A stretch of 64,000 nt of DNA from Syntrophales bacterium (GCA_052144335.1 JBKQQP010000053.1:62818-126817), one strand, 5' to 3'. Positions 2,973 to 58,557 are shown, counted from the first letter of the stretch. The notes: a model not told the origin generated them from the letters alone. Program-made: numbers and translations.

Positions 2973-4172
2973 ATGGATTTTAATCTCACAAGCGCTCAAC
3001 AGATGTATGTAGATACAGTTAAGAGATTTGTCAGGCACGGAATTATACCGCAGGTTATGGAACTAGAAAAGAAGCATACTTTTCCCTGGGAAATTATCCA
3101 GAAAGCTTGGAGCCTCGGAATTTTGAATCTGAGCATCCCTGAATCGGTTAAAGGATTTGAGGTTGATCCCGTTTCCACAGCCCTTATTATTAAAGAACTA
3201 TCCTACGGAGATACCGGGATTTCCACGTCGGCAATGTGCAATGACCTCGCAAATACAGTTATTGCCCAACATGGTACGGATGAACAGAAGGCCCTTTTCT
3301 TAGGTCCCTTTGTCGAGAATCCCGTGATGGCCTCTTTCTGCCTGACGGAACCAGGCGCCGGTTCCGACAACTCTGCGATGACGACGTTCATCAAAAAGAG
3401 CCCCGATGGGACGTATGTCCTCAATGGCAGCAAGTGCTTCATCACCAATGCTTCCTATGCATCACAGTTCACCGTTTTTTGTAAAGTCGGCAAACCAACG
3501 GGCAATTTCATGGCCTGCTTAATAGTTCCCGCCCTGCAGGTGCTTCCCTCCAATTCGGATCCGCATCTCGCCCATGGCAAAGAGATGACTCTTCCCACGG
3601 GCGGAAAAATCATCATCGGAAAACCGGAAGACAAGCTGGGACAGCGTTTGTCAAATACGGCCGCCGTCACATTTGAAGACGTAGTTATCAATGAGAATCA
3701 GATAATCGGAGATCGGAGGCAGGGGTTCAAGTATGTCATCGACGTTCTTGACTATGCCCGCCCCATGGTTGCGGCAATTGGCGTGGGGCTCGCCAAACGG
3801 GCATTAGATGTTACTTTGGAATACACAAGAGAGCGCAAGCAATTCGGGCAAAGAATTTGTGATTTGCCGGTTGCAAGAGAGACCTTGGTGCTAATGTGGA
3901 AAAAGGTCGAGCTTGCGGATATGGCGCTCTTGAAAGCGGCTTGCAAGGTTCAGGAAAAAGCCGACGACAGGGGCATGTACGCCTCGCTCGCGAAGAATGC
4001 CGCCGCGGAGGCGGCCTTGTTCTGCGCCAACGAAGGCCTGCATCTCCATGGCGGATATGGATTCATGTCAGAATATGAAATCTCGAAGCTGGCAAGGGAT
4101 GCGCACATCATCGACATTTACGAGGGTGTGCGAGAGGTCCAGAACATGATTATCGGAAGGGAGCTTGTATGA
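2973..4172 (+). CDS. acyl-CoA (or acyl-ACP) dehydrogenase family flavoprotein
   Basis: 399 aa with ACAD-like sequence throughout (FCLTEPGAGSD, ...IYEGVREVQNMIIGREL with the catalytic-Glu context). The stop overlaps the next start (ATGA at 4169-4172). Confidence 0.85.
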   Translation: MDFNLTSAQQMYVDTVKRFVRHGIIPQVMELEKKHTFPWEIIQKAWSLGILNLSIPESVKGFEVDPVSTALIIKELSYGDTGISTSAMCNDLANTVIAQHGTDEQKALFLGPFVENPVMASFCLTEPGAGSDNSAMTTFIKKSPDGTYVLNGSKCFITNASYASQFTVFCKVGKPTGNFMACLIVPALQVLPSNSDPHLAHGKEMTLPTGGKIIIGKPEDKLGQRLSNTAAVTFEDVVINENQIIGDRRQGFKYVIDVLDYARPMVAAIGVGLAKRALDVTLEYTRERKQFGQRICDLPVARETLVLMWKKVELADMALLKAACKVQEKADDRGMYASLAKNAAAEAALFCANEGLHLHGGYGFMSEYEISKLARDAHIIDIYEGVREVQNMIIGRELV

Positions 4173-5161
4173 GTGTACTCTATCTTCACGGTATGGGCCA
4201 TTTCCACCCGGAGAATGTTATCACCAATAGATTTTTGGAAGAGATGGATATCGGAACAAATGAGACATGGATCATGGAGAGGGTTGGTATTCACACACGA
4301 CGCACCGTGCTCCCTTTGGACTATATAAAGGAGACGAAAAATAGAGACCCGAGAGAAGCCTTCGCGGCAGGCCTTTACAATAACGCGCAAACGGGCGCAT
4401 CTGCCGCGCGGATGGCCACCGAGCGCGCCGGACTCAAAAAGGAAGATATCGGGCTTGTCATCTCCGGTAGCTCGGCCGCAGATAATGCTTCACCTGCGGA
4501 AGCTTCCACCATAGCTGCGGAATTGGGAATCGATGTACCCTGCTTCGACGTGAATTCTGCCTGCACCAGCTTTGGAACACAGCTGCATCTTATGAGCCTC
4601 ATGCGGCCCGAGGCGCTGCCGCCTTTTGTCCTTCTGGTTAATCCAGAAAATCTCACGCGCTGTGTGGACTATGCCGATCGTAAATCCGCGGTGCTGTTCG
4701 GTGATGGCAGTTCCGCGGCGGTTATATCAGCCACGGTGCCGTCGCGCAAATCCTTCACGGCATGCGCTTATGAAACGAAACCGTCAGACTGGGATAAGGT
4801 GGGGATACCCCGCATGGGTTACTTCCACCAAGACGGGAATGCTGTCCAGGGCTTTGCCATTCGCAAGACAACAGATGCTATTCGCATGCTGCAAAAGACC
4901 TATGCACTCAACGGCAATCGCTTCATCTTTATCGGCCATCAGGCCAATATGGGCATGCTGAAAACTGTCTGCGAACGTTCGCAAATTACGGAAACCAATC
5001 ATTGGCACAATGTAGAATTTTTTGGCAACACCGGCTGCTCCGGAGCGCCGACTGTTCTCAGCCAACGGTGGAATGATCTCAAGCCGGGGGATCATGTGGC
5101 CATTGCCATTGTCGGGGCGGGACTGTCCTGGGTGCACATGGTCTTACAGGTAGAGGAATAA
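4169..5161 (+). CDS. 3-oxoacyl-ACP synthase III-like (KAS III / FabH family)
   Basis: 330 aa. The Cys-His-Asn triad contexts are present: DVNSACTSF, IGHQANMGML, FGNTGCSGAP. Confidence 0.8.
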   Translation: MSVLYLHGMGHFHPENVITNRFLEEMDIGTNETWIMERVGIHTRRTVLPLDYIKETKNRDPREAFAAGLYNNAQTGASAARMATERAGLKKEDIGLVISGSSAADNASPAEASTIAAELGIDVPCFDVNSACTSFGTQLHLMSLMRPEALPPFVLLVNPENLTRCVDYADRKSAVLFGDGSSAAVISATVPSRKSFTACAYETKPSDWDKVGIPRMGYFHQDGNAVQGFAIRKTTDAIRMLQKTYALNGNRFIFIGHQANMGMLKTVCERSQITETNHWHNVEFFGNTGCSGAPTVLSQRWNDLKPGDHVAIAIVGAGLSWVHMVLQVEE

Positions 5162-5163
5162 TC

Positions 5164-5757
5164 ATGAAGTATGCGGAATTCAGAGAATGTCAGAGCTTCG
5201 GGCTGGAGCAACTCATCGCTTTTTCCTACGGGACACTGGTAGATGATCCGCCTGCAAATTTCGAGGCCCGTTTACCGGCACCCCCCTTTCTTATGGTAGA
5301 TCGGGTGCTCTCATTTTCTACTGTCGGCAGGCAAGGTTCGATCGTAGCCGAACAGGATATTAAACTGGACGCCTGGTATTTTCAGTGCCACATGCCCGGG
5401 GACCCGGTGCAGCCGGGCTGCCTCTGTGTAGATGCGGTGTGGCAACTTCTGGGTTTTTATTGTGTATGGCGCGGTGCCTTAGGCGCTGGCAGGGCCCTCG
5501 GTTGCGGTGAGATTACCTTCAGCGGTCAGATTCGCCCTTATAATAAATGCGTCCGCTACGATATTGAAGTGAGACGTTTCGCCCAATTGAAGGACTCGGG
5601 CGCGAGCATTGCAATTGGAGACGGTAAAGTTTTTGTCGACAATGAACTGATTGCCCACATCAAAGATGCCCGTACGGGTGTTTTCAAGGAGATTATCTAT
5701 CCTGACTATCCGAAAAGATCGGTAAACTCTATCGGCGGCATCATGAGGAGTGGCTGA
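5164..5757 (+). CDS. fabA: FabA-type 3-hydroxyacyl-ACP dehydratase/isomerase
   Basis: 197 aa. From memory it aligns along its length with E. coli FabA. Matches are LPAPPFLMVDRV (E. coli LPAPNMLMMDRV), DAWYFQCHMPGDPVQPGCLCVDAVWQLLGFY ([31 protein letters not shown]) and GRALGCGEITFSGQIRP (GRALGVGEVKFTGQVLP). Confidence 0.8.
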   Translation: MKYAEFRECQSFGLEQLIAFSYGTLVDDPPANFEARLPAPPFLMVDRVLSFSTVGRQGSIVAEQDIKLDAWYFQCHMPGDPVQPGCLCVDAVWQLLGFYCVWRGALGAGRALGCGEITFSGQIRPYNKCVRYDIEVRRFAQLKDSGASIAIGDGKVFVDNELIAHIKDARTGVFKEIIYPDYPKRSVNSIGGIMRSG

Positions 5758-6485
5758 TGAGTGAGAAACCTGTTGCCATTGTAACGGGCGGCGGAAGAGG
5801 AATAGGTGCGGCTTGTTGCCGGGCGCTGTCAAAAGAAGGATTTCTGGTGGGCATTCACTATCGGAGCAGCCAGGAACAGGCAAGAGCTTTGCTCTCTGAG
5901 ATAGGTGATGGCTTTCTTCTTCAGGCTGATCTCACCAATGTGGATCAGGTGGAAGCCTTGGTCAACAAGACAAAAGAGGACGCGGGCCGCGTGGATGTCC
6001 TTGTCAATAGTGCCGGACTATCTCTCAATGCCGATATCGTCAGCATGAAGATCGAGCAATTCGATGCCCAGCGGGCCTTGATGCGCGGCATATGGTTTCT
6101 CACCAAACGCATAATCCGCCTCTTCATGCTGCGTCAGAGGGGAGGCCGCATCATAAATATATCGAGCGTCGTGGGACATACCGGCAATGCCGGCCAGATC
6201 CCATACACCATGGAAAAGGCCGCTCTCGACGCTTTTACAAAGTCCCTGTCGAAAGAACTGGCGGGAAGGAATATCCTCGTCAATTCCGTTGCCCCGGGAT
6301 TCATTGAGACAGAGATGACACAGAATCTCCCCGAAGAGGTGCAGCGGAGGATCCTCGAGAATATTACCCTGGGCCGCATGGGACGCCCCGAAGAGGTGGC
6401 GGAGGTGGTGGCCTTTCTCGCAACAAGGGGTTCCTATATATCGGGAAGCGTCATCCATGTGAATGGGGGGCTCTATGGCGGCTGA
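5757..6485 (+). CDS. fabG: 3-oxoacyl-ACP reductase (SDR, FabG-like)
   Basis: 242 aa with the cofactor motif TGGGRGIG, the catalytic YTMEK (YxxxK) and NSVAPGFIETEM. The ATG overlaps the preceding stop by 1 nt. Confidence 0.8.
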   Translation: MSEKPVAIVTGGGRGIGAACCRALSKEGFLVGIHYRSSQEQARALLSEIGDGFLLQADLTNVDQVEALVNKTKEDAGRVDVLVNSAGLSLNADIVSMKIEQFDAQRALMRGIWFLTKRIIRLFMLRQRGGRIINISSVVGHTGNAGQIPYTMEKAALDAFTKSLSKELAGRNILVNSVAPGFIETEMTQNLPEEVQRRILENITLGRMGRPEEVAEVVAFLATRGSYISGSVIHVNGGLYGG

Positions 6486-6951
6486 TCGGGAAACGATGAC
6501 ACGAATTCTAAATAGTGTTCCTCAGGAGCATCCCTTTCGCTTTATCGACGATATATTGGAACTGGATGATGAACACATTGTAGGCACTTACCGCTTTCGT
6601 GAGGATGAGTATTTTTACAAGGGACACTTCCCCGGCCAGCCGATCACCCCAGGTGTCATTCTCATCGAAGCCATGGCACAGACGGGGGTTGTCGCCTTCG
6701 GCCTTTATCTTCACATGAGGCAGACCCATACAACTGTGGAGGATGCAAAAAAGCTGACTACATTATTTACCCTTGCCGAAGGAGTGGAGTTCACGGGGGT
6801 CGTACATCCCGGTGAGCGAGTGATCGTTAAAGGTCACAAAGTCTATTTTCGCATGGGAAATCTGAAAATGAAGGTTTCCATGGAAAGAGAAAATGGAGAG
6901 ACGGTGAGTTCCGGCATACTTGCCGGGAGGGGAGTGCCTTCCCGGATTTAG
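6463..6951 (+). CDS. FabZ-like hotdog-fold 3-hydroxyacyl-ACP dehydratase
   Basis: 162 aa with HPFRFIDDILELD...YFYKGHFPGQPITPGVILIEAMAQTG, a FabZ-type His context. The start is uncertain between 6463 and the ATG at 6475. Either start overlaps the fabG stop at 6483-6485. Confidence 0.7.
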   Translation: MGGSMAADRETMTRILNSVPQEHPFRFIDDILELDDEHIVGTYRFREDEYFYKGHFPGQPITPGVILIEAMAQTGVVAFGLYLHMRQTHTTVEDAKKLTTLFTLAEGVEFTGVVHPGERVIVKGHKVYFRMGNLKMKVSMERENGETVSSGILAGRGVPSRI

Positions 6952-6983
6952 CGCTTAATGATTTCTATGGAGGTTTACTTTAG

Positions 6984-8276
6984 TTGAAAAGAAGGGTCGT
7001 CATAACCGGGATGGGAATAGCAGCCCCCAATGCCCACGGCTTGGTCAATTTTGAAGATGCCCTGCGGAAAGGCCTCTCCGGCATCCGGTTTTTTCCTGAA
7101 CTTAAGGAATTGAACTTTTCTTGCCAGATAGGCGCGGCCCCGCACGACTTTGACAATATCCGCAAGGGCTATTTTAATGAAGATACACTGATGTCGATGA
7201 ACGAAAATATCGGCTACGCAGCTGTTTCTGCCGTAGACGCATGGACCGACGCCGGTTTCAAGATGCCTGACATTCACGATGATACGGTGGACTGGGATAC
7301 AGGCGTAATTGTCGGCTCCGGAATCGGCGGCATGGATACAATTACAACCATTCTCGTGCCCATGGTCTCCCAAGGAAAAGTGCGCCGCATGGGAAGCCGT
7401 ATAGTGGAGCAGGTGATGAACAGCGGCACAAGCGCATGTATCGCGGGCCTCTTGGCCCTCGGGAATCAGGTGACTTCAAATTCGTCTGCCTGCAGCACGG
7501 GGAATGAGGCGATTGTTGAAGGGATGTGGAGAATACGGAATGGTCTTGCAAAGAGGGTCTTGGCCGGTGGCTCTGAAGGCCAATCCCCTTTTATCTGGGC
7601 CGGATTCGAGGCCATGCGCGTTATCTGCAAGAAGTTTAATGATTACCCGGAGGCTGCTTCACGGCCGATGAGCGCCACCGCATGTGGTTTTGTCCCCGGG
7701 TCGGGTGCTGGAATTCTGGTGCTTGAAGACCTGGAATCCGCGCTGGCACGTGGAGTAAGAATTTATGCTGAAGTTCTCGGAGGCGCTGTCAATTGCGGAG
7801 GGCATCGTATGGGCGGCTCCATAACCGCACCGAATCCCGAGGGTGTCAAACGATGCATCAAGGCCGCCATATCCGACGCATGTATTGTGCCGGCTGATAT
7901 AGACGCAATCAACGGCCACTTAACGGCAACCTTTGCCGATCCTTATGAAGTGAAGAATTGGTCGGCAGCCCTCGAGCGCGGCCCCGCCAATTTTCCCTAC
8001 ATCAATTCCACAAAATCTATGGTGGGGCATTGCTTAGGCGCAGCGGGCGCGATAGAGAGCGTTGCCGTCGTATTGCAATTATACAAGGGTTTCCTCCATC
8101 CTTCCGTTAATTGTGAGGATATACACCCCGATATCGCTGAATTTAAAGATAAGGTGCCACAGAAGTGCATGGATTATCCTGAATTAAATATGATCGCCAA
8201 AGCCGGTTTCGGCTTCGGCGATGTGAACAGCTGTCTCATCTTCAAGAGATGGAATAATAACCAAAGGAGCTATTAA
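6984..8276 (+). CDS. beta-ketoacyl-ACP synthase (KAS I/II family, divergent)
   Basis: 430 aa with a TTG start and GGAGG 10 nt upstream. The Cys-His-His contexts are NSSACSTGNEA, INGHLTATFADP (unusual compared with HGTST) and STKSMVGHCLGAAG. Confidence 0.85.
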   Translation: MKRRVVITGMGIAAPNAHGLVNFEDALRKGLSGIRFFPELKELNFSCQIGAAPHDFDNIRKGYFNEDTLMSMNENIGYAAVSAVDAWTDAGFKMPDIHDDTVDWDTGVIVGSGIGGMDTITTILVPMVSQGKVRRMGSRIVEQVMNSGTSACIAGLLALGNQVTSNSSACSTGNEAIVEGMWRIRNGLAKRVLAGGSEGQSPFIWAGFEAMRVICKKFNDYPEAASRPMSATACGFVPGSGAGILVLEDLESALARGVRIYAEVLGGAVNCGGHRMGGSITAPNPEGVKRCIKAAISDACIVPADIDAINGHLTATFADPYEVKNWSAALERGPANFPYINSTKSMVGHCLGAAGAIESVAVVLQLYKGFLHPSVNCEDIHPDIAEFKDKVPQKCMDYPELNMIAKAGFGFGDVNSCLIFKRWNNNQRSY

Positions 8277-8279
8277 GAA

Positions 8280-8528
8280 ATGGACGAACAGACAATTTTT
8301 AACAAAATGATCGATATCCTCAGGGGCTACACGAAGGACCCGACCTTGCTGGACAAGGCGACAAAGGATACCCACATTCTCAATGACCTCAAGGTCAATT
8401 CCGCCAGGCTGGTAGATGTAATTATAAAGTGTGAAGACACATTCGGCATCACCGTCGAAGATGACGAGGCCGATAAGATAGGTACAGTCGGAGATGCGGT
8501 GGCTATCATCAAAAGCAAATTAGGATAA
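8280..8528 (+). CDS. acyl carrier protein (dedicated)
   Basis: 82 aa with ACP-like helix pattern DLKVNSARLVDVIIKCEDTFGITVEDDE. The probable phosphopantetheine Ser lies in NSA rather than the usual DSL. An AGGAG SD is present. Confidence 0.7.
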   Translation: MDEQTIFNKMIDILRGYTKDPTLLDKATKDTHILNDLKVNSARLVDVIIKCEDTFGITVEDDEADKIGTVGDAVAIIKSKLG

Positions 8529-8536
8529 GGTCAGTC

Positions 8537-9346
8537 ATGAAGAAGATGTTGATGCTCCAGGGCCCTCTGCTGATTCAATACATGCTCGGTCAGATAGCTA
8601 TCTTTGTTATCGCCCCGCTTTATTTTTCAGTCATCTGGCTCATGGGCTACAGGGTGAGGAATATACAGAAGATCAGGCAGGAGTGTTCCCGTTATTTCAG
8701 GAATTACGAGGGGCCGTGGATCATCTGCGCGAATCACCTTACAATGATCGATTCCATGATCATTACATATGCGGTATTTTCTTTCACCCGTAATTTACTG
8801 CACTACCGTGAGCTGCCCTGGAATTTGCCAGAAAGAAGCAATTTCCAGCGGAATACTTTCATGGCAATCCTGTGCTACCTGGCCAAGTGCGTCCCCATCA
8901 ACAGGGGCGGCAATCGTGAAGAGATGAAAAAAACCCTTGATAAATGCACATCGCTTCTCGAATGGAAACAACCATTACTGATTTTTCCTGAAGGAGGGCG
9001 CTCCCGGACCGGCCGCGTGAATACCGAGAGTTTTTCCTACGGTGTGGGCCGGTTCATCAAAGATTTTGAAAACTGCAAGGTAATGTGTATCTATCTGCGA
9101 GGCGATAGCCAGCACTCTTACGGCTTCATTCCCAGATTTCGCGAGCGCTTTACAGTGAATGTGGAAGTCTTTCGGCCCGAACTAACACAAGAAAACGGAC
9201 TCAGGGCTCAGCGCAATTATGCAGAGCAGATCATCAACCACATGGCACAAATGGAGAAAGGTTATTTTGATTCGCATAGGCAACGATATTGTGGATCTGA
9301 CCGATCCGCACAATATGGGGACGAGTCGGAATACGCGATTCATTAA
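8537..9346 (+). CDS. lysophospholipid/glycerolipid acyltransferase (PlsC/LPLAT family)
   Basis: 269 aa with an N-terminal TM segment, the HX4D motif CANHLTMIDS and IFPEGGRSRTG. Confidence 0.75.
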   Translation: MKKMLMLQGPLLIQYMLGQIAIFVIAPLYFSVIWLMGYRVRNIQKIRQECSRYFRNYEGPWIICANHLTMIDSMIITYAVFSFTRNLLHYRELPWNLPERSNFQRNTFMAILCYLAKCVPINRGGNREEMKKTLDKCTSLLEWKQPLLIFPEGGRSRTGRVNTESFSYGVGRFIKDFENCKVMCIYLRGDSQHSYGFIPRFRERFTVNVEVFRPELTQENGLRAQRNYAEQIINHMAQMEKGYFDSHRQRYCGSDRSAQYGDESEYAIH

Positions 9347-9923
9347 CCGAGTTTTCACGACCGGTGAACAAGAACTAATATCCCGTGCTCATAACCAGGA
9401 CACCGTCTTATGGGCGCTCTGGGCAGGCAAGGAGGCAGCGTACAAGCTTGTCAAGAAGCATGACCCCTCCGTCAATTCTGTCCCCAGGTTATATGAAGTG
9501 AGTCTGGATTGCGCGGAGGAATCAGTTGGACCTTCTCCTGGAAGCAATGCCCTTACAGGATTCGTCACTACACCACGCGGCAGGGTTCAGATCAGGATTT
9601 TCATAACGCCCGACTATGTTCATTGTATCGGAACTACATCTGCACTGGATCAGATGGATGCGCTCGTTTGGCATGTGGACCGCATCAGCCCCGATTCACA
9701 GGCCTCTCCCGATTATGAATCGATATTTGTGCGTAAAGCCCTCAAGCTCCGCCTCTCAGAACATTATGATGAATCTCCGGAAAATATCGAAATCTGGCGG
9801 GTGAACAGTCCTTATGGTCTGGGACCGCCATTCGTCTGCATAAGCGGTGAATCCGCGGCAATCGATGTCAGTCTCAGTCATGACGGCCTCTTTACCGCCT
9901 ATGTCTTTGCCGCAAACGCTTGA
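9219..9923 (+). CDS. 4'-phosphopantetheinyl transferase
   Basis: IRIGNDIVDL near the N-terminus and WAGKEAAYKL further in. The start is uncertain. The ATG at 9219 gives a 128-nt out-of-frame overlap with the previous gene. A TTG at 9267 preceded by GGAGAAAGG gives an 80-nt overlap. Confidence 0.7.
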   Translation: MQSRSSTTWHKWRKVILIRIGNDIVDLTDPHNMGTSRNTRFINRVFTTGEQELISRAHNQDTVLWALWAGKEAAYKLVKKHDPSVNSVPRLYEVSLDCAEESVGPSPGSNALTGFVTTPRGRVQIRIFITPDYVHCIGTTSALDQMDALVWHVDRISPDSQASPDYESIFVRKALKLRLSEHYDESPENIEIWRVNSPYGLGPPFVCISGESAAIDVSLSHDGLFTAYVFAANA

Positions 9924-9926: not shown

Positions 9927-10430
9927 CTACGCTGTCTCCCCTTTCAGAAATTTGTCTTCTATGAGATCGGCAATGCCCCGGATATCATCGATATCAAGGC
10001 AGGGTACGCCTTTGTCTACGGGCTCGTCACTCACAATGGCCAAAAGATTATCTTCTCGTGAACAGAGAGGGTCGTGCTTCATTTCCGCTCGCACCACCTC
10101 AATTTTTGGATACGGATTTCTTTTAAAACCTTCGGAAAGGATGATGTCGACGTCACGTATATAGCGATCCCGCAATTCCGCCAATTCAAGGTCCCTGTCC
10201 ACATCCTCAATGACAGCGACGGTATGGGGTGATGCGATGACCGTGAGGCGCGCCCCAGCCTTCTTGTGCCGCCAGCTGTCTTTGCCCTCGTGGTCTATGT
10301 CGAAGCCGTGGATGTTGTGTTTGATCGTAGCCACCTGATAGCCCCTTCGCCTCAGCTCCGGTATCAACTTTTCGATCAGCGTCGTCTTCCCGGTATTCGA
10401 TCGACCGACTATAGATATTATGGGTATCAA
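9927..10430 (-). CDS. mobB: molybdopterin-guanine dinucleotide biosynthesis adapter MobB
   Basis: IISIVGRSNTGKTTLIEKLIPELRRRGYQVATIKHNIHGFDIDHEGKDSWRH. I prefer the TTG start at 10430 (GAAGGGGAAAGG upstream, TTGA overlap with the GNAT stop) over the ORF-track start at 10556. Confidence 0.8.
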   Translation of the reverse strand: MIPIISIVGRSNTGKTTLIEKLIPELRRRGYQVATIKHNIHGFDIDHEGKDSWRHKKAGARLTVIASPHTVAVIEDVDRDLELAELRDRYIRDVDIILSEGFKRNPYPKIEVVRAEMKHDPLCSREDNLLAIVSDEPVDKGVPCLDIDDIRGIADLIEDKFLKGETA

Positions 10431-10951
10431 GTGCCTTTCCCCTTCATACCGAACGCCCGCCGTTCCGCAAGAACGACGGATGTTTCGATCTGACGTTCCG
10501 GTATCGACCAGTATCGTTTCAGCAAGCGATCCTTTTCTTCGGGAGAGACCAGACAAAAGCCATGCGCCTCATAGAAACGAACCGCCCAGACTGCCGCCGC
10601 CCAGGTGCCGATCAGGATCGGACGGGACGCTTTCTTCCGAAGTTCCGACAATAGCCTGCCGCCGATGCCCTGGCGGCGCCTCACCGTACGCACGTATGCA
10701 TGTCTCATCAACGTTACATCCTCTATATCCTGCGTGCCCATGACTCCCAGAAGTTCCCCATTCTTTATATAACTCCAGAATTTTACTCCTTCGTCAATTT
10801 CATGTCGGAGTTCATCTTTCGACATATAGGGTTCCTTCCATCTATCCGTGGGAATGATGCCTCTGTAAGCCTCGGCAGCGTCGTTAATAATCTCATAGAT
10901 AATTTCAAAATCCCTTTCCCCGCAGGGACGGATCTCAAGATGGCTCGTCAT
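10427..10951 (-). CDS. GNAT family N-acetyltransferase
   Basis: 174 aa with the acetyl-CoA binding motif VRRRQGIGGRLL. The start overlaps the upstream stop (ATGA at 10948-10951). Confidence 0.8.
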   Translation of the reverse strand: MTSHLEIRPCGERDFEIIYEIINDAAEAYRGIIPTDRWKEPYMSKDELRHEIDEGVKFWSYIKNGELLGVMGTQDIEDVTLMRHAYVRTVRRRQGIGGRLLSELRKKASRPILIGTWAAAVWAVRFYEAHGFCLVSPEEKDRLLKRYWSIPERQIETSVVLAERRAFGMKGKGT

Positions 10952-11382
10952 TCAGAGTCCTTTTTGTCAGGAAACATCAGGAATGTCGCCGTGCAACGCA
11001 GCACATCCCTGTCATTCTCGTCCTTGACCAGACAATCACCGATAATCAGTGTACGCCCTTTCTTGAATATGCTTGCCTCCGCAATCAGTTCACCCTTCTT
11101 AACCGAGGCCAGGAAATTGCATTTCAATTCGACGGTCGTTATTCCGAAAGAAGGTTCCAGGACTGTCATCGCGGCATGGGCAATGGCCTCATCAGCTAAG
11201 GCTACAATGAGTCCTCCCTGTAAGAAACCTGCCCCTTGCATATACTCGCCTAGGACCGGCATCCGGAAACGCGCATATCCTGCACGCACCTCTTCGAGGG
11301 TTATTTCAAAATAATCGAGATAGGGGTTCAGGTTCTTTTCGCCAGCTTGAAACCGCCGGAGATAAGTCGAGTAATCAGGCAT
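10948..11382 (-). CDS. PaaI-family hotdog thioesterase
   Basis: 144 aa with LQGGLIVALADEAIAHA... and a typical PaaI/4HBT layout. Confidence 0.75.
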   Translation of the reverse strand: MPDYSTYLRRFQAGEKNLNPYLDYFEITLEEVRAGYARFRMPVLGEYMQGAGFLQGGLIVALADEAIAHAAMTVLEPSFGITTVELKCNFLASVKKGELIAEASIFKKGRTLIIGDCLVKDENDRDVLRCTATFLMFPDKKDSE

Positions 11383-11422
11383 AGTCTCATCCTTGTCGAT
11401 AACGCTGACTTCTGAGAGGTTC

Positions 11423-11451
11423 TATTTAACCCTCCTGCTCCTTTATTTCAA
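11423..11451 (-). promoter_or_regulatory. possible sigma-70-type promoter for thioesterase-GNAT-mobB
   Basis: On the minus strand: TTGAAA (11451-11446), a 17-nt spacer, then TAAATA (11428-11423). This lies in the 99-nt gap after the DUF364 gene. Confidence 0.3.
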
Positions 11452-11481
11452 ATAGAAAGATGTATCTGTCTGACTGCATTA

Positions 11482-12249
11482 TTATTTAACGAACAGGTTT
11501 ACGAACCTGAGATAAGGTCGCATCGCCGGTGTGCCGCCGCCTTCGGAGATGATCTGCATGCATTTCCCGGCATCCCTGACTACGGCGCCTCCCAGGTGGT
11601 GGACAGGCGTTCCCTGAAAAATTTCGGGCAGGAGGGGTGTCGAGGGGCCGAGAATGGCTACATGCCTTGGATTGCCCAAGCCATTCAGAACTTCTTCCAG
11701 GGTGTCATTAAGAAGTGCGGTTGCCGTAACAATCGCTACAGTGCATTCCTTCAATATCCTGTCACTGTCTTTTTTATCGAGAACTGCCAGACGGGCGGGG
11801 TTCCGTTCAATGACGGTGAGCTTCGCTCCCGTTCTTTCGATCTTCGGAACCATCGGCGTGAAGAGACCGACCATGGCCACATGATCTTCCGGCTTCAATT
11901 TCATGATCGAGAGGGAGTCTCTTTCATCTTCACCGAATTCTGCATGGAGAACGGCATTCGCAGCAGCAAGTCCTAAGGCTCTTTTTAGGGGATCCTGTCC
12001 TTCCGTGATGTTTATGAGGAGAGAGGTTGCCTTTGATCCGGCCAATCTTCCAGCCTCGGGAAATACGGAGCAGCCCCATGGCAGCTCGTGGAGCAACAGG
12101 GCCGCGAGCCCCACGCATCGGTCATTCAGCATCACCCCCACGTAGCCGAGGCCGATGCGAACCTCTTCGATCACGGCGTTTTTCCCTCTATGAAACACAA
12201 TGTCAAAGAGACGGCGAGCTATTTCACCTTTCGGAAGCATGGCGTTCAC
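11482..12249 (-). CDS. DUF4213/DUF364 protein (annotated elsewhere as a putative heavy-metal-chelation Rossmann-like domain)
   Basis: 255 aa with EEVRIGLGYVGVML...GLAALL...ALGLAAANAVL then VAMVGLF...VAIVTATALLNDTLEEVL...VAILGPSTPLLPE. This is recognised from memory of the family pattern. The GTG start at 12249 overlaps the TGA of the giant ORF (GTGA). Confidence 0.6.
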   Translation of the reverse strand: MNAMLPKGEIARRLFDIVFHRGKNAVIEEVRIGLGYVGVMLNDRCVGLAALLLHELPWGCSVFPEAGRLAGSKATSLLINITEGQDPLKRALGLAAANAVLHAEFGEDERDSLSIMKLKPEDHVAMVGLFTPMVPKIERTGAKLTVIERNPARLAVLDKKDSDRILKECTVAIVTATALLNDTLEEVLNGLGNPRHVAILGPSTPLLPEIFQGTPVHHLGGAVVRDAGKCMQIISEGGGTPAMRPYLRFVNLFVK

Positions 12250-15200
12250 ATCGAATAATGGGTAAATCGCTTGTCGGATGCAAATCCCTCACCCTCCTTT
12301 TTTGCGCCGGTCTTTGTCGGTTTTTTATCATCGGAGATTTTTTCATCGCGTGCGTCTCTCCTCTTTTTCCCCTTACTTTTCTTGTGAGACGCTGGCGCCT
12401 CTCCTAGAGCGTTGCTCCAGGTGTCTACCAAACCGGCCAGCTCTCCCAAATTGGTCAACTCCTCAACCCATACTTCTGTAAATCTTGATCTCAGAGCAGG
12501 TGACAGCAGGTTTCGCGATTGATGCACGGAGGGAGGATTCATTGAAAGAAATATCCGGAAATTAGGATGGGCGTGACAGACATTCTCCTCTCCATCGATG
12601 ACGTAGCCGAAGTCCAGCAGAGTGTTTAAGTATTCGGACAGGGGGGAGAGATTCGCTTCGTCTATGAGGAGCCAGCTGCCCTTCTCCATGGCCATGAACA
12701 GCAGGCCTTTCCTGTAATGCCATTTCCCCTTCTTGTCTTGAGTATAACCGCCCAGAAGCTCCTCCAGTCCCGTATCGGAGGAGAGGTTGACATAGTAGAG
12801 GTCCGTCTCTTTTTGACCGGCCAGATATCTGATGAGAGTGGTCTTTCCTGAAGCGGGATTTCCCGCCACAAGCAGAGGTTCGTTATTTATCAGGGCCTTC
12901 AGGAGGAGATAGAGGATCATGTTCTGCGTCGGCGTAGGTACAATCGCTGCGTCATGTCGGGGAATCAATGCATCTCCCTTTGACGCTGTTAAGGCTGCAA
13001 GCAGGGAATCCAAATCCAAAGAAGCGGACATGAGCACTTCTTTTAGGTCCAGGCCCTCAGCCCGGAAACCAAAATGTGCATCCAAGAGACTGACCACTGC
13101 CTCTCTTTCGGAGCTGTCCCGAAGCCTCCCTATATAAACACTGAAGAACTCCAGGAAAAACTTTTTGAAATATTCCTTGTCGGCTGATCTATTCGCGAGG
13201 AGTGGCTCCAATCTCCTCCCCAGTCTTATTACATCCCTGAGGGTAAATATATACGGGTCTTTTTCCGCCTTGCCGATGATGCGGCTATCCGCCTGATTCT
13301 GTAAAGTGGTGTGGAATCTGGCAATGGGAAGGGCGGAGGCGGAAGTAATCTCAAATAAGGAACTTAGTATCTGGGACAGTTCCTCTTCAGAGAGCTCTTT
13401 CTGGTAAAGGATCTTGAACCTGGACAAGAATACCTCCGAGAGTTTCTGCCTCTGGCTGTAGCTTTCCGGGTTCCCTGTGGCAAAAAGTCTGAAATCGGGA
13501 TGGGGATACAATTCCCTCTGCTCCCCGTTTGCCGAGTAGGATATCCTTCCCGTAATGAGATAGTCATTCATTATCTCGACCACTTCGGAAGATGCCAGGT
13601 TTATCTCTTCGAGAGTCAGCCACAGGCCATCACGCGCTGCATTCAGAAGAATACCGTCCTGCCAGATGAATCTGCCCTCCCTGTCAGGTTTAATGCCTCC
13701 GATTATCTCAAACTTGGAGGTGTAGGGGTTGATGGAATACGAGAGATGCTCATAGCCCAAGACGTGAGCGAGCCATTTAATCAAGAAGCTCTTCCCCGTT
13801 GATGTAGGGCCCAGGAGCAGGACGGAGTGTCTCAAGAGATAGCCTATACATAATGTCTCCAAAATATGGTAGCCGGACTCCGTCATCACGCAGGCAGGTA
13901 TATCGTACCGCTGCTCTGCCCTCTTTAAAAGAAGATCTCCCACTGTTAAAGATTGTTCACCGATCTGCACTTGGCCCGCATGCGTACCTGCTATGGTATT
14001 TCTCATAGGTTCACCGAGCATCTCATTGAAGGAAGCGAGCGCCTTGATAAATTCCTTCTCCCTGCCCGAGATTATATCCGAAAAGATTCTTATTGCCGCC
14101 CGTGCCGCGGCCTGACGGACGGACCAGATCTTATCCTTCAATCTCTTTTCCAGTTTGTTTAATTCGACGTCATTCCCCCGTCTGATAAGGGCGTGTTGTA
14201 TCTGGACCAAGGCAAGTGCGGCAGCCTGGTGTACAAACCAGTTTTCATCCTTCAAGCTTGCTTCCAACTCTTTTGAAGTTACCTTCTTCCGATGATAGCT
14301 GCGAGGCCAGATGCGGCCCAGGGCCTGCGCTGCGGCCTGGCAGACGGATCTGTCCACATCCGCGTCTCTCAATCTGTCTTCCAAATTCCCTAAGTTCACA
14401 TTTTTCCCCCGTCCGATGAGGCCGGGATAGATCTGCCCCAGGGCCTGGCATGTAGCCTGACGGACAGGCCAGCTGGGGTCTTCGAGCCTCTTTTCCAAAT
14501 CTTTCAAAGCCATCCTGCCATGGTAATAGCTGTGGAACCATATCCGACCTAAGGCCACCGCAGCGGCCTGGCGGACCGACCAGTCGTCGTCGTCGAGCCT
14601 TTCTGCCAATTTTCCCAAATTAACATCTCGCCCACGCTTGATGAGGGGCGGATAGACCTGACCCAAGGCCACGGCGACGGTTTGACGGGTCAGTATGTTT
14701 TTATCTTTCAACCTTTCTTCTAACCCCTCCAGGTTGATCTCTATTCCCTTTCTGATAAGAGCGCCGTAGGTCTGCCCCAGGGCCTCGGCCTCGGCCTGGC
14801 GAACAAACCAGTTCTTATTCCACAACCCTTCTTCCAATTTGCCGATGTTCACATTCATTCCCTGTTCCATAAGGGGCGGATATATCCTGCCTAATGCCCT
14901 TGCCGCAGCTTGGCGGACGGCCCAGTTTTCGTCCCGCAGCCTGTGCTCCAATGTCCCCAGCGTTATTTTCCCCTTGCGATAATAATAATACCATATCCGG
15001 CTTAAAGCCTGGGCGGCGGCGCGGCAGACGGACGGATCTTCATCCTTCAGCATTTCCTCGAGCAGACTCAAATCCACATCTTTTCCCTGTTTGATTAGCG
15101 CGAGATAGACCCGGCCCAAGGCTGAGGCTGCGGGCTGGCGGACAGCCCAGCTTTTATCCTCTAATTTTTTCTCGAGCTCCTCGATGGCTATTTCTTTTAG

Positions 15201-17663
15201 AAGTTCGTCGTCAATGACCCGGAAACTCGCTTCCAGTCCAGGGATGCTCACGAAAGCCATGTCAGAGGAACTGATGAGCGACTTCAGCAATGAGAGGGCC
15301 TTCTCGATCTGAGGGTCAGCGTTATTCTTCATCAAAATATCCAGGACGGAAGCCAGGTCGTGCGGAATAGAAGACACACGGGAATCCGTCTGTGAAGACG
15401 CTGAGTGAAATTCCTGCGGCACTTCTTCCCGCGTGAAGTCGGGGAATATCTTCCGTATTTCTTCAATCCTTTCGACGATGAGATCTCTAACCCGCTGGGA
15501 CTGTTCCTGGGTATCTATAAACGCGTATTTCAGGCTCCTTCCGAACGCTTCTCTTGCCTGATAGCCCCGGTTCATCAAGAACCCCATGAGCTCCGACGCC
15601 CTCTTTAGATGTCTCACATTGAAGATCGGGATATTCTGCTTCAGGCAAAGATAGAGAGACGCCAGGAGTTCTGACAAATCCGCGGGCAGGGACGAAGCGG
15701 TATCTTCTTTCTCTATATGGGCCTCATGCCGGGGCGTCAGAAAACTGTCCCAGTATGCATCTTGCGTGACAAGTTTTTCCTCCAGTATGCCTGAGAGGAC
15801 GGACGGCAGTTCTTCCACTGCGTCAATCTGCATGCCGCTGGCGTATCTCTTTATCACCTCCGTTACCTCTTCACCCAAACCCACACCGAGCACCTCTATC
15901 TTTTGATCCAGAGCCTCTTTCTGAAGCTCGGCAAATGTCTTACCGGTTGTATTCACGTTTCCTTCTCCGTCCGTCACCATGATGATCCACCTAGATGACT
16001 CCTCGGGTTGATCTTTCAATATATTCGTCGCTAACTGTAGAGCATCCGCATCGGCGGTGGAGCCTCCCGGTATGCACAGGGAGACCTCATCGAACAATAC
16101 CCGCCTGCCTGCCGTATCCAGCTTCACGCCCAACTCTTTGTGCATTATGGGGCTGTCGGAGAACCCGATTACCCCGTAATCGATACCGATATGATCGAGA
16201 GCCTCCATGAAGACGAGAAGCCCTGCGAGGGCAAATGTCCTTTTGGGTTCGTCCATGGAACCCGATTCATCGAGGGCGAGGATTATTTTGTGGTCTCTCT
16301 GGGTAGGGAGTCTCCTCTTCAGGAAGACCCGCAAATCTTTATCCTGCACCGGAATACCCTCGCTCAATTTCCGGGAAAGCTCCATGGCCCTCCGTAAATC
16401 CGGCTTTTGGCCGGAAGGGAAATAGCCCTTGAAGGAAGGCCTTCTATTTTTCGCGAAGTGATTTTCCAAAATGCCACTTAAGGCGTGGACCAAGGTCGAG
16501 ATCAACCTGTAAACCCTCTCGTACTCGCCTATCTTCGCATCCTGTTCGCGGTCTATTTTTCGCTGCTTCTTGATGAGGTCGCGGAGAGTCTCTATGGGCA
16601 ATGGGGTCGTTCTTTCACCGGAGGCTTTGCCGCCTTCACGGCGCGCTTTTGTTTCTTCCGGGGTCTCCTTCCTGTATTCCTCCGTTTTCCTCGTCTGCTG
16701 CTTATCCGTCTTCGATGATAACTTGTCCGCCAGCTCCCTGGCTTTTAACTCCAATAATTTTCTCGCCTCTTCCTCGATCTCATCCGGGCTCAACTCCTCC
16801 GGGGCGCATTTTTTCTCCTTGACTTGGAGCTGGCCGTCTTTTATGGCCTCCGCCAGCTTAGCAATCGCCAGTCTAACGAGGATTTCATACTCCGGGAGAA
16901 TATTGTCCCTCACCATCAGGGCAGTTTCTTCTGCGAACCTCAGCTTCTCATTTTCGGAGACCGGCCCGGGAGGACAGTGATTGAAGATCACCGCAAAATT
17001 TCCGTGCGTCCGCAGAAGGGCGGCGCCTACTTCCGGATTCATCAATTGGGACGGAAGGTGGCCATACAGCCAGTAATAGCGCATACCCAGCAAGTATTCC
17101 AGGTGCGGATACAGAACATACGGATGGCAGGATGTGCTCGCCCTTTCGGAGATTTCACCCTTCAGATGATCGACATACGACGATCTGGACAAATCCCGGG
17201 GAAGCATTTCGGCGTAGGCAATATTCAGGTAGTGTTTGATCCCTTTGAAAACGCTTATCAGCCAGTTATCGACACGGCTGTCTTCGAAGGCATTCAAGAG
17301 AAGCCTGGTGGATTCCGTGGCGGAGAATGTCTTAAAGACCGCCTTCCTCAAGTTCCGGCGGGATATTTGCCTGTGTCCCGTCTCGTGAGCGCAAAAGGCG
17401 ATGACCTCTTCCACTGAAGAGGATAATAACAATCCTACGGGAAACACAATTTCATTGGTCTCGCTGTTATATCTCCAATTGCTGCCGGGGGCAATTTTCA
17501 GGTGAATATCCTCTCCCAGTCCCGTGGAGATAATCTGCATGAGCGTGAGCAGGCGCTCGTCGATTACCAGCGTTTCTCCCTCGTCAAGTCCTTTCCTGCG
17601 GATCAGTTCTTCTACACACCGCGCCCGCAAACGGCCTTCTTCTGTTTCTGATTTGCCTTTCAT
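12246..17663 (-). CDS. giant multidomain protein: zincin-like (DUF2201_N-type) + vWA/MIDAS + 10 HEAT-like repeats + 2 x AAA_5 (MoxR/midasin-type) ATPase
   Basis: A single open frame runs 12246-17825 (1,859 aa in the ORF track). I place the start at the ATG at 17663 (MKGKSETEEG...) because the first 54 codons look like non-coding read-through. No good SD is present, so the start is uncertain. Domain motifs are listed in the sub-features. Confidence 0.8.
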   Translation of the reverse strand: MKGKSETEEGRLRARCVEELIRRKGLDEGETLVIDERLLTLMQIISTGLGEDIHLKIAPGSNWRYNSETNEIVFPVGLLLSSSVEEVIAFCAHETGHRQISRRNLRKAVFKTFSATESTRLLLNAFEDSRVDNWLISVFKGIKHYLNIAYAEMLPRDLSRSSYVDHLKGEISERASTSCHPYVLYPHLEYLLGMRYYWLYGHLPSQLMNPEVGAALLRTHGNFAVIFNHCPPGPVSENEKLRFAEETALMVRDNILPEYEILVRLAIAKLAEAIKDGQLQVKEKKCAPEELSPDEIEEEARKLLELKARELADKLSSKTDKQQTRKTEEYRKETPEETKARREGGKASGERTTPLPIETLRDLIKKQRKIDREQDAKIGEYERVYRLISTLVHALSGILENHFAKNRRPSFKGYFPSGQKPDLRRAMELSRKLSEGIPVQDKDLRVFLKRRLPTQRDHKIILALDESGSMDEPKRTFALAGLLVFMEALDHIGIDYGVIGFSDSPIMHKELGVKLDTAGRRVLFDEVSLCIPGGSTADADALQLATNILKDQPEESSRWIIMVTDGEGNVNTTGKTFAELQKEALDQKIEVLGVGLGEEVTEVIKRYASGMQIDAVEELPSVLSGILEEKLVTQDAYWDSFLTPRHEAHIEKEDTASSLPADLSELLASLYLCLKQNIPIFNVRHLKRASELMGFLMNRGYQAREAFGRSLKYAFIDTQEQSQRVRDLIVERIEEIRKIFPDFTREEVPQEFHSASSQTDSRVSSIPHDLASVLDILMKNNADPQIEKALSLLKSLISSSDMAFVSIPGLEASFRVIDDELLKEIAIEELEKKLEDKSWAVRQPAASALGRVYLALIKQGKDVDLSLLEEMLKDEDPSVCRAAAQALSRIWYYYYRKGKITLGTLEHRLRDENWAVRQAAARALGRIYPPLMEQGMNVNIGKLEEGLWNKNWFVRQAEAEALGQTYGALIRKGIEINLEGLEERLKDKNILTRQTVAVALGQVYPPLIKRGRDVNLGKLAERLDDDDWSVRQAAAVALGRIWFHSYYHGRMALKDLEKRLEDPSWPVRQATCQALGQIYPGLIGRGKNVNLGNLEDRLRDADVDRSVCQAAAQALGRIWPRSYHRKKVTSKELEASLKDENWFVHQAAALALVQIQHALIRRGNDVELNKLEKRLKDKIWSVRQAAARAAIRIFSDIISGREKEFIKALASFNEMLGEPMRNTIAGTHAGQVQIGEQSLTVGDLLLKRAEQRYDIPACVMTESGYHILETLCIGYLLRHSVLLLGPTSTGKSFLIKWLAHVLGYEHLSYSINPYTSKFEIIGGIKPDREGRFIWQDGILLNAARDGLWLTLEEINLASSEVVEIMNDYLITGRISYSANGEQRELYPHPDFRLFATGNPESYSQRQKLSEVFLSRFKILYQKELSEEELSQILSSLFEITSASALPIARFHTTLQNQADSRIIGKAEKDPYIFTLRDVIRLGRRLEPLLANRSADKEYFKKFFLEFFSVYIGRLRDSSEREAVVSLLDAHFGFRAEGLDLKEVLMSASLDLDSLLAALTASKGDALIPRHDAAIVPTPTQNMILYLLLKALINNEPLLVAGNPASGKTTLIRYLAGQKETDLYYVNLSSDTGLEELLGGYTQDKKGKWHYRKGLLFMAMEKGSWLLIDEANLSPLSEYLNTLLDFGYVIDGEENVCHAHPNFRIFLSMNPPSVHQSRNLLSPALRSRFTEVWVEELTNLGELAGLVDTWSNALGEAPASHKKSKGKKRRDARDEKISDDKKPTKTGAKKEGEGFASDKRFTHYSM
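12456..12878 (-). other. AAA_5 (MoxR/dynein-related) ATPase module 2
   Basis: Walker A LLVAGNPASGKTTL, Walker B SWLLIDEANL, and FLSMNP...LSPALRSRFTEVWVEEL (midasin-like sensor motif). Confidence 0.8.
13401..13823 (-). other. AAA_5 (MoxR/dynein-related) ATPase module 1
   Basis: Walker A LLLGPTSTGKSF (nt 13788-13811), Walker B-like LWLTLEEINL (EE instead of DE), and FATGNP...VFLSRFKILY. Confidence 0.75.
14076..15176 (-). repeat. ten tandem ~37-aa HEAT/PBS-lyase-like repeats (intragenic, ~111-nt period)
   Basis: Repeat cores: DKSWAVRQPAASALGRVY, DEDPSVCRAAAQALSRIW, DENWAVRQAAARALGRIY, NKNWFVRQAEAEALGQTY, DKNILTRQTVAVALGQVY, DDDWSVRQAAAVALGRIW, DPSWPVRQATCQALGQIY, DVDRSVCQAAAQALGRIW, DENWFVHQAAALALVQI, DKIWSVRQAAARAAIRIF. 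Confidence 0.85.
15756..16289 (-). other. von Willebrand factor A domain with complete MIDAS motif
   Basis: KIILALDESGSM (DxSxS at nt 16257-16271), GGSTADADALQLA, and WIIMVTDGEGN. Confidence 0.8.
17196..17558 (-). other. zincin-like putative metallopeptidase module (HExxH)
   Basis: FCAHETGHRQ (HETGH at nt 17373-17387) followed by LLLNAFEDSRVDNWL. This is the HExxH ... A-x-D-x-x-(V/I)-N pattern I associate with DUF2201_N domains of MoxR-partner proteins. Confidence 0.5.
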
Positions 17664-17945
17664 AGCTGTAGTTGTCTTCAAAAAATAGTTTTCATTCCTG
17701 CGCGCAAGAATCCGAAAAGGGAAGCATAGAAGAAAACGGGTGGGTGTGTCAATGGGAAAAGGGCCATCGAATTGTCTCGTAGAAAGAGAAGCTGGATAAA
17801 CCACACAAAGAAACACACCCATCATCCATTCCCTGATCCGAAATTCAGGTTTTTTAAAACTGGATTTTATGAATTCTACGATGGATGAAATTTCTCATCA
17901 GCCTTAGATTTTGCTTGTAATTTGAAAATACCAAGGGGGAACAAA

Positions 17946-43439: not shown

Positions 43440-43512
43440 TGCCTTACAGGCCGCTGCACAGATGAACTGGCGGCTTTTCTATTTTCTAAACAGCAAGGAG
43501 CACGTAGCAAAT

Positions 43513-45186: not shown

Positions 45187-45209
45187 AAAATAATTGCGGA
45201 GGTTCTGCC

Positions 45210-45722
45210 ATGTTAAGAAAAGCACGCGAAAAGGAACAGACCGTTTCCATTCTGGTAAACAATCAGCCGGGTGTGCTGTCCCGTGTGGGAGGCGTATTTG
45301 GCCGACATGGATACAACATCAAAAGCCTTTGCGTAGCGGAAACGACGAACCCAGATGTTTCGAGAATCACGCTGACCAGCGAATCGGATCCTGACTTTAC
45401 TGAAAAGATAAAAAAACAACTGGACAAGCTTGTAGATGTAATCGATGTCTCCGATGTCTCAGGACAGTCCTACATTCAGAGAGAATTAATGTTGATCGGC
45501 GTCAATGTCAAAGAGGGAGCCTATCAAGAAATCCTGCGGGCGATTGAAGTGTTAGGCTGCAGAATCGTCACCATGACACCGGATTATTTCATCCTGGAAT
45601 TGACGGGTCAGCCGGATGAAACGGCCGCATTCCTGAAATTCTTTCAATCATTCGGCGTAGAGGAAATAAATAGAACTGGCCTAATCGCCCTGCAAAGAAC
45701 CAGGCCCAAGAGAAAAGTCTAG
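45210..45722 (+). CDS. ilvN: acetolactate synthase small (regulatory) subunit, copy 1
   Basis: 170 aa with an ACT domain, VSILVNNQPGVLSRVGGVFGRHGYNIKSLCVAETTNPDVSRITL. Confidence 0.9.
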   Translation: MLRKAREKEQTVSILVNNQPGVLSRVGGVFGRHGYNIKSLCVAETTNPDVSRITLTSESDPDFTEKIKKQLDKLVDVIDVSDVSGQSYIQRELMLIGVNVKEGAYQEILRAIEVLGCRIVTMTPDYFILELTGQPDETAAFLKFFQSFGVEEINRTGLIALQRTRPKRKV

Positions 45723-47736: not shown

Positions 47737-47780
47737 GATATACTAGAATATATCAAATTCATTGTGAGGTGAATGAGCTT

Positions 47781-58467: not shown

Positions 58468-58557
58468 GGTAAATATTCCTTCTAAAGATTCGTGTTTTAT
58501 GCTAACGTTTCTCCAAAATTTGCGTATCAAAATGCCGGTTGTGTGCTTTGCTAAATC

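Follow-up and report, generated by a model that had tools for sequence, protein, structure and literature searches.

In a 64,000-nucleotide (nt) stretch of a Syntrophales bacterium genome (GCA_052144335.1 JBKQQP010000053.1:62818-126817; the window), five consecutive open reading frames (ORFs) on the minus strand, 9927-17825, encode a giant AAA_5/VWA/HEAT protein, a DUF4213+DUF364 protein, a thioesterase, a GNAT acetyltransferase and MobB. Comparison with related loci shows that the DUF364 and MobB genes are neighbours, as a conserved pair, in Syntrophales and Nitrospirota alike. The DUF364 clade nearest to the MobB-linked one sits behind ModABC and FmdE genes, beside genes for selenocysteine formate dehydrogenases, and linkage to the giant gene is confined to a single clade. 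From these genomic patterns, we think it probable that the chain is a rearranged or relocated form of an older DUF364-MobB module that would act in late supply of the molybdenum/tungsten (Mo/W)-pterin cofactor bis(molybdopterin guanine dinucleotide) (bis-MGD), most likely for formate dehydrogenases. What is new here is modest but concrete: the conserved DUF364-MobB pair, which is undescribed in 13 papers that mention DUF364, and a local GNAT-MobB fusion. The parts of the chain are as follows.

12246-17825, minus strand: giant AAA_5/VWA/HEAT gene, longest ORF; 12246-17663, about 1805 amino acids (aa), from its probable start; assigned by Pfam, homologue lengths, invariant motifs and synteny
11482-12249, minus strand: DUF4213+DUF364 gene, 255 aa from GTG or 252 aa from the ATG at 12240; assigned by Pfam
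11383-11481, minus strand: intergenic gap between the DUF364 and thioesterase genes, 99 nt
10948-11382, minus strand: hotdog-fold thioesterase, 144 aa; assigned by Pfam (4HBT) and NCBIfam
10427-10951, minus strand: GNAT acetyltransferase, 174 aa; Acetyltransf_10 (PF13673), motif RRQGIGG
9927-10430, minus strand: MobB, 167 aa from TTG; PF03205 and TIGR00176

The gene order and domain assignments, first made in an earlier reading without database searches (the sequence-only reading), are borne out by the ORF coordinates and by Pfam, with every domain call of the chain above its curated cut-off. The DUF364 protein scores 135.3 bits for DUF364 (cut-off 23; residues 113-251) and 59.5 bits for DUF4213 (cut-off 23.5; residues 20-101). 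MobB scores 168.2 bits against the 133-position profile PF03205 (cut-off 26.6; residues 4-135) and 157.2 bits against TIGR00176 (cut-off 76.2), carries the Walker A motif (P-loop) GRSNTGKT at residues 9-16, and is a predicted P-loop GTPase adaptor of molybdopterin guanine dinucleotide synthesis. Its TTG start codon, which forms the TTGA overlap of the GNAT/MobB junction (10427-10430), is supported by homologue alignments that begin at residue 1-3. This overlap and the ATGA of the thioesterase/GNAT junction (10948-10951) are both present as the sequence-only reading had described them. The DUF364 GTG and the giant TGA do share GTGA (12246-12249), but the start in most DUF364 homologues corresponds to an ATG three codons further on (12240), and thus the giant-DUF364 junction may be a 5-nt gap rather than an overlap. 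Stop and start are overlapping or 5 nt apart in the window and seven relatives.

To compare this arrangement among genomes, we used a scan that retained one genome per species, which yielded 80 DUF364 loci at 49-85% identity; a further locus, L002, brought the number to 81. Loci were compared by tblastn with the window proteins and by clustering of all neighbouring ORFs, and they form three groups:

Group A, 15 loci, DUF364 67-85% identical to that of the window: giant immediately upstream (0-222 nt; one copy disrupted)
Group B, 25 loci, 53-60% identical, from Syntrophales, Nitrospirota and Thermodesulfovibrionales: no giant; MobB 15-367 nt downstream on the same strand
Group C, 41 loci, 49-56% identical, mostly Smithella: no adjacent MobB; FmdE at most two genes upstream in 34 of the 41

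MobB lies directly downstream of DUF364 in 25 of the 66 giant-less loci, those of group B, where it is 42%-73% identical to the window MobB and spans two phyla. MobB is thus not the orphan that it had seemed from the window sequence; it is the ancestral partner of DUF364. In a neighbour-joining tree of the 82 DUF364 sequences (midpoint-rooted, without branch-support values), group A is one clade nested within group B, and most of group C is a separate clade. The exceptions, two loci classed in group C and placed inside the group B clade, are L054 and L020; the contig of L020 stops 140 nt past DUF364.

The surroundings of these genes point to Mo/W metabolism. ModA/ModB genes are present in 29 of the 41 group C loci and a molybdopterin oxidoreductase in 32; a molybdopterin oxidoreductase lies within 10 kb in 9 of the 25 group B loci. 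The order in one Smithella locus, L070, is FdhA, ModA, ModB, ModC, FmdE, DUF364. On a Thermodesulfovibrionales chromosome (L048), FmdE is followed by FdhA split by an in-frame TGA (TIGR01553, 1161 bits), FdhB and an FdhE-like gene; then come DUF364, MobB (TIGR00176, 132 bits), a ModE domain (101 bits against a cut-off of 98.5) and a MoCF-domain gene; and the row ends with ModA (TIGR01256, 196 bits), ModB and ModC. Both here and in L058, the DUF364-MobB pair is enclosed between FdhA/FdhB/FdhE on one side and ModE, the MoCF-domain gene and ModABC on the other. A rhodanese resembling the MoeB rhodanese domain precedes the pair in six group B loci. Based on L048, L070 and the rhodanese loci, DUF364 and MobB are repeatedly embedded in contexts of Mo/W uptake, cofactor metabolism and formate dehydrogenase.

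Other features of these loci were recorded. The formate dehydrogenase alpha subunit occurs as two adjacent in-frame ORFs in L048 (5225-8275), L070 (4190-6898) and many Smithella loci, with sizes of about 190 + 800 aa or 356 + 529 aa, a signature of TGA-encoded selenocysteine. A protein of 93-124 aa directly follows MobB in L021 (11432-11743), L041 (7903-8235) and eight other group B loci. This protein combines a single N-terminal transmembrane helix (WVLIVLLAGFIGQFGKS) with a tail rich in lysine, has no match in Pfam or NCBIfam, and is absent from the window. In L043, a Syntrophales chromosome (OY761459.1, 2,586,994 bp), the DUF364-MobB pair is 3 kb from the start.

A precedent for MobB in this setting comes from Methylorubrum extorquens AM1, where MobB is indispensable for the W-formate dehydrogenase and not for the Mo branch; the protein binds MoeA1, and its gene belongs to a moeA1-mobB-tupBCA cluster (PMC13197769). 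By analogy, MobB would serve as a GTP-dependent adaptor at the MoeA/MobA step of metal insertion and guanylylation, the role shown for that W-formate dehydrogenase.

The relatives of the DUF364 protein by sequence in the PDB, 3NPG (E = 9.7e-11) and 3L5O (E = 2.5e-7), are both unannotated DUF364 structures. Residues invariant in all 82 sequences include C60, N98, G128, E148, C169, T175, T177, H218 and E236. In the Dhaf4260 structure, the pocket is formed by a GxG, an Asn, a Gly-aromatic pair, a Glu after beta-2 and Thr/Asp/Thr after beta-4 (PMC2954201). The counterparts G33/G35, N98, G128-x-F130, E148, T175/T177 and N181/T183, which were mapped by motif and by HMMER alignment to 3L5O rather than by structure, are likewise invariant. 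For the enolase-N-like plus Rossmann-like fold that characterises the family, an AlphaFold model built from a 12-sequence alignment had a mean predicted local distance difference test score (pLDDT) of 38 and was unusable. With a putative Rossmann-like, adenosyl-type pocket and invariant Cys and His, the protein probably acts just upstream of MobB, handling an imported oxyanion or a cofactor intermediate.

Several points weigh against assigning the chain to cofactor supply. Within 10 kb, the window and the 15 group A loci have no Mo/W transporter, FmdE or molybdoenzyme gene. The sequence-only reading had seen no mobA or other molybdenum cofactor (Moco) gene nearby, and this holds: among about 50 scanned ORFs of the window, including most large ones, there is no Moco, mobA, moeA, mod, tup or molybdoenzyme gene. 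In the window lineage only MobB itself still points to Moco. MobB of Escherichia coli is dispensable (PMC13197769). The first and only characterised DUF364 enzyme, Orf5, is a 4-methylazetidinecarboxylate synthase (catalytic residues Tyr61 and Glu204) that cyclises 4''-methyl-S-adenosylmethionine (SAM) in a Streptomyces peptide pathway, the bonnevillamide cluster (PMC12930334), and the chemistry of the family thus need not involve metals. The sequence does not explain the function of the GNAT and the thioesterase, and all of the context evidence is genomic.

On the other side of MobB lies a nine-gene lipid cluster (2973-9923, plus strand), whose genes encode an acyl-CoA dehydrogenase, a ketoacyl synthase (KAS) III, a FabA-like protein, FabG, a second FabA-like protein, a KAS, an acyl carrier protein (ACP), an acyltransferase and a phosphopantetheinyl transferase (PPTase). 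The FabA-like genes in relatives carry ApeI/ApeP-like Pfam matches, and the cluster thus resembles the aryl-polyene type. Its last gene adjoins the chain:

9219-9923, plus strand: PPTase gene, convergent, its stop codon 3 nt from the MobB stop codon

The cluster also converges on GNAT-MobB in three other loci (L085, L087 and L088), two of which (L087 and L088) lack both DUF364 and the giant.

This neighbour could be taken to mean that the chain belongs to a small-molecule pathway, in which DUF364, as an Orf5-like SAM enzyme, works with the thioesterase, the GNAT and the ACP/ketosynthase/PPTase genes to make an acylated or amino-acid-derived metabolite while MobB is a bystander. A thioesterase and an N-acyltransferase would suit acyl-carrier chemistry, the convergent arrangement is kept among the loci just named, and Orf5 does cyclise a SAM derivative for a natural product (PMC12930334). 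Counter to this, the DUF364 of the window is nested in a clade with MobB as its constant partner, and the neighbours that mark its sister clade are ModABC, FmdE and formate dehydrogenase rather than biosynthetic clusters. The lipid cluster adjoins GNAT-MobB where there is neither DUF364 nor thioesterase, and the cobalamin radical-SAM methylase that partners Orf5 is not among the scanned window ORFs. We consider this pathway highly unlikely.

The place of the giant is a separate question. Its homologues are 1790-1810 aa long and cover 97% of the longest ORF, and therefore the true start is probably M55 at 17663. The protein has an N-terminal HExxH region. In addition, Pfam assigns it a VWA domain (30.6 bits), about ten HEAT repeats, AAA_lid_7 and a pair of AAA_5 modules that score 128 bits over two stretches. 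The HExxH is invariant (HETGH, 17373-17387), and the VWA has an intact metal-ion-dependent adhesion site (MIDAS) motif, DESGS (16257-16271). Walker A motifs lie at 13788-13811 and 12840-12863, with GPTSTGKS, GNPASGKT and LLIDEAN present; the Walker B of the first AAA_5 module reads LEEIN (13599-13619), not the usual DE. The HExxH domain has no Pfam match. For the N-terminal 466 residues, an AlphaFold model of moderate confidence (pLDDT 63.6) gave no Foldseek match in the PDB at E < 1. The family is tiny, with 35 proteins in 5.8 billion clusters, and splits into a clade of 61-92% identity and one of 42-47%; source names of the giant and DUF364 homologues are those of uncultured Syntrophales. 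A known anti-phage defence protein was considered as an identity for the giant and was rejected by a scan of PADLOC-DB, which returned no defence-system match, only generic P-loop/HEAT noise (mad8, 28 bits with no single stretch passing; HEAT model, 17.6 bits).

Within the clade of at least 61% identity, DUF364 is the same-strand neighbour of the giant in 18 of 18 loci, and this adjacency outlasts changes in both flanks and one IS200 insertion. The giant of L002, at 64% identity, has DUF364 behind it and, after that, one GNAT-MobB fusion gene. Behind a 61% homologue come an IS200-type transposase, DUF364, NifU_N and Aminotran_5, in that order. In L085, a rubrerythrin gene and an opposite-strand toxin-antitoxin pair separate giant-DUF364 from GNAT-MobB. 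The linkage is gone at 42-47% identity: the distant giants (L001, L003 and L004) have neither DUF364 nor MobB downstream, only a peroxiredoxin and a lactamase_B-rhodanese gene. Relatives of the AAA_5 or VWA regions of the giant are absent from all 66 giant-less DUF364 loci. The linkage of the giant with DUF364 is thus restricted to a single clade.

Further observations concern the same contigs. The contig of P0026 (JGI 3300075153) has an IS200-type Y1 transposase between giant and DUF364, with NifU_N and a class V aminotransferase after DUF364 and, further on, a TIR/SEFIR protein, a serpin and an ankyrin-repeat protein. The giant of L001 is about 1.1 Mb into a contig of 2,585,060 bp. Upstream of the window giant is a class V aminotransferase (18563-19672, minus strand), whose position is conserved only in the closest relatives (at least 84% identity). 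Its candidacy as a sulfur-supplying cysteine desulfurase was rejected: it scores as an AGXT/PhnW/pyridoxamine-pyruvate-type transaminase, with the NifS/IscS models below 35 bits.

Pairs of a MoxR (AAA_5) ATPase and a VWA protein are known in maturation (CoxD/CoxE, NorQ/NorD, CbbQ/CbbO, CobS/CobT and BchI/BchD), and CoxD/CoxE mature a molybdoenzyme active site. With the CoxD/CoxE precedent, a giant that remodels a Mo/W enzyme is a reasonable idea, if a doubtful one. The sequence-only reading had taken the neighbourhood as a hint, which it called circumstantial, that the giant is part of a metallocofactor insertion or maturation system. This can be stated in its fullest form as a single insertion machine made of the whole chain, with the giant as ATP-driven remodeller and DUF364 and MobB as cofactor-handling accessories. 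Arguing for such a machine, besides that precedent, are the adjacency in 18 of 18 loci despite differing flanks and the IS200 insertion, the overlap or 5-nt spacing in the window and seven relatives, the intact MIDAS and two Walker A motifs, and His54 of DUF364 (near the invariant Cys60), which is fixed only in the giant-linked clade. Against it, the association arose once; the 42-47% giants and the 66 giant-less loci each do without the other part, GNAT-MobB persists without the giant, and no giant locus has a candidate client enzyme within 10 kb. The giant also falls far short of curated equivalogs: CobS (TIGR01650) 25.7 against 558, cobaltochelatase (TIGR02442) 27.4 against 779 and GvpN 29.4 against 267. 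We regard the single machine as unlikely. In other words, what stands of the earlier claim is that DUF364 and MobB orthologues do lie beside ModABC, ModE, FmdE and formate dehydrogenase, whereas the tie of the giant to them is that of one clade. Given this one clade, the distant giants without partners and the 66 giant-less loci, the link between giant and cofactor rests on a single evolutionary event. The giant is best described as a lineage-specific upstream neighbour of the module, and possibly as a member of it.

The two genes between DUF364 and MobB are also confined to part of this diversity. The thioesterase passes 4HBT (PF03061, 54.8 against 20.6) and the generic hotdog model TIGR00369 (61.3 against 36.6) and fails the PaaI equivalog TIGR02286 (36.8 against a cut-off of 118.9). 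The earlier name, PaaI thioesterase, is thus too specific: the protein is a hotdog thioesterase, PaaI/YdiI-like in the generic sense only. It occurs only in giant-clade loci, being absent from 66 of 66 other DUF364 loci and from the GNAT-MobB loci L085, L087 and L088, and is a lineage-specific insertion between DUF364 and GNAT-MobB.

The GNAT scores 46.3 bits against PF13673 (cut-off 23.6), has the acetyl-CoA motif RRQGIGG and receives no equivalog subfamily assignment in NCBIfam. Wherever a giant-clade locus shows both GNAT and MobB, the GNAT immediately precedes MobB. L087 and L088 carry GNAT and MobB as a pair whose stop and start codons overlap, and have no giant, DUF364 or thioesterase. 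GNAT and MobB are fused into one protein in L002 (353 aa) and L016 (352 aa). None of the 150 best MobB cluster representatives carries such a fusion, which is therefore local and confined to a small subclade. Representatives with other architectures (P0276, P0277 and P0400; GNAT in none) have a tandem MobB-MobB (349 aa), a C-terminal extension of about 150 aa (315 aa) or an N-terminal one of about 190 aa (351 aa). The fusion may point to a kind of regulation or modification not reported before, in which the GNAT probably modifies or regulates MobB or the client of MobB. The four smaller genes do not form an ancient block; in a single lineage, DUF364 and MobB became separated by insertion of the thioesterase and the GNAT.

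Alternatively, the chain may be no more than gene order inherited within a shallow Syntrophales lineage, a row of unrelated housekeeping genes in which only the old DUF364-MobB tie is meaningful. Loci with the full chain are all close kin (giant at least 84% identical), and the transaminase and lipid cluster are equally conserved in them. The GNAT belongs to a very large family (at least 8000 matches, with stand-alone proteins among the close homologues), and one close homologue is alone in an unrelated context (L086). Counter to this, the giant-DUF364 and GNAT-MobB adjacencies outlive all others when flanks rearrange, the GNAT-MobB fusions argue for physical cooperation, and the 4-nt start/stop overlaps suggest co-translation. 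We find it very unlikely that the genes share no function.

The 99-nt gap between DUF364 and thioesterase is confirmed; the weak sigma-70-like promoter that the sequence-only reading placed there is not detected by a consensus scan, which found neither promoter nor terminator in the gap. Across the whole region, the scan gave 3 promoter-like matches against 2.1 expected. A TTGAAA-N17-TAAATA stretch is kept among eight close relatives, among which the gap is 89% identical anyway. The ribosome-binding site AAGGATGAG precedes the thioesterase ATG within the gap. A riboswitch or attenuator here was rejected: the RNA fold of the gap has z = -0.09 and the alignment fold has no covariation support, so no significant RNA structure is indicated. 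An Rfam scan of the whole window matched zero families, the Moco riboswitch included.

Returning to the relocated DUF364-MobB module, its simplest history would begin with an ancestral DUF364-MobB pair. The giant would then have been acquired upstream of DUF364 in one Syntrophales sublineage, which would also have received the GNAT, alone or together with the thioesterase, between the two genes of the pair. In the window lineage, the pair lost its Mo/W context and came to stand right behind the giant gene. In this clade, giant and DUF364 are presumably transcribed together, and the giant may act as remodeller of a client enzyme, which is one possibility and not a result. The strongest form of this idea, quite unlikely in our view, is that one Syntrophales clade recruited the giant, with its zincin-like, MIDAS-VWA, HEAT and two AAA_5 parts, as a dedicated ATP-driven chaperone that works with DUF364, a GNAT-coupled MobB and the Mo/W-bis-MGD pathway to load or repair a W/Mo enzyme such as formate dehydrogenase. 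In that case, the giant would correspond, in a single polypeptide, to CoxD/CoxE or NorQ/NorD, with a pterin cofactor enzyme as its client.

The DUF364 family has more than 4000 proteins and one characterised member, and its role beside Mo/W transporters is now given a testable place. Specifically, the occurrence of the DUF364-MobB pair in a formate dehydrogenase/ModABC/ModE locus would place DUF364 at the late, metal-specific steps of pterin cofactor assembly. This is of relevance to those organisms in which syntrophic life depends on W/Mo-selenocysteine formate dehydrogenases. For the giant, the result mainly limits what can be claimed: its neighbourhood is suggestive and reflects a single lineage-specific event.

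Elsewhere in the window, gidB, parA, parB and dnaA lie in a row at 57799-61606, where the GC skew switches sign nearby; this row indicates that the window includes the chromosomal replication origin region. Two tandem pairs of ilvB/ilvN-like acetolactate synthase large and small subunit genes (43462-45722 and 46048-48266) are followed by ilvC and ilvD.

Among known systems, the MoxR/VWA pairs resemble the giant in joining AAA_5 modules (Walker A/B) with a VWA bearing an intact MIDAS. Unlike them, the giant unites all parts in a single chain of about 1800 aa in which the VWA precedes the ATPases, adds about ten HEAT repeats and a HExxH domain, and is adjoined by no client metalloenzyme gene in the window, the 15 related loci or the three distant loci; unlike CobS and the chelatases, it scores far under the curated model cut-offs.

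Orf5 shares its Pfam family with the DUF364 protein, and a Rossmann-like adenosyl-binding pocket is plausible in both. The partners differ: those of Orf5 are a cobalamin radical-SAM methylase and non-ribosomal peptide synthetase genes, and here they are MobB, ModABC and formate dehydrogenase genes.

Two further contexts of DUF364 come from papers that did not demonstrate a function for it. The Dhaf4260 structure paper (2010) reports DUF364 neighbours that are tungstate, molybdate, vanadium and iron transporters, with MobB unmentioned (PMC2954201). In Methanococcus maripaludis, a DUF364 gene (MMP_RS02675) lies inside modABC and is cofit with nifH, polar effects not being excluded (bioRxiv 10.1101/2024.03.05.583561). 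The two-domain DUF4213+DUF364 protein at a molybdate/tungstate ABC transporter in 29 of 41 Smithella-type loci is like both. Unlike them, the window copy has lost the transporter, and the partnership with MobB (25 loci) is one that those papers do not mention.

A likeness for MobB is moeA1-mobB-tupBCA of M. extorquens. Here MobB adjoins DUF364 (with the GNAT) instead of MoeA. The related loci encode a transporter that scores as ModA (TIGR01256) rather than TupA, and the window itself has no transporter, MoeA or formate dehydrogenase gene. As in that cluster, MobB in L048 and L058 stands beside an oxyanion ABC transporter and a formate dehydrogenase.

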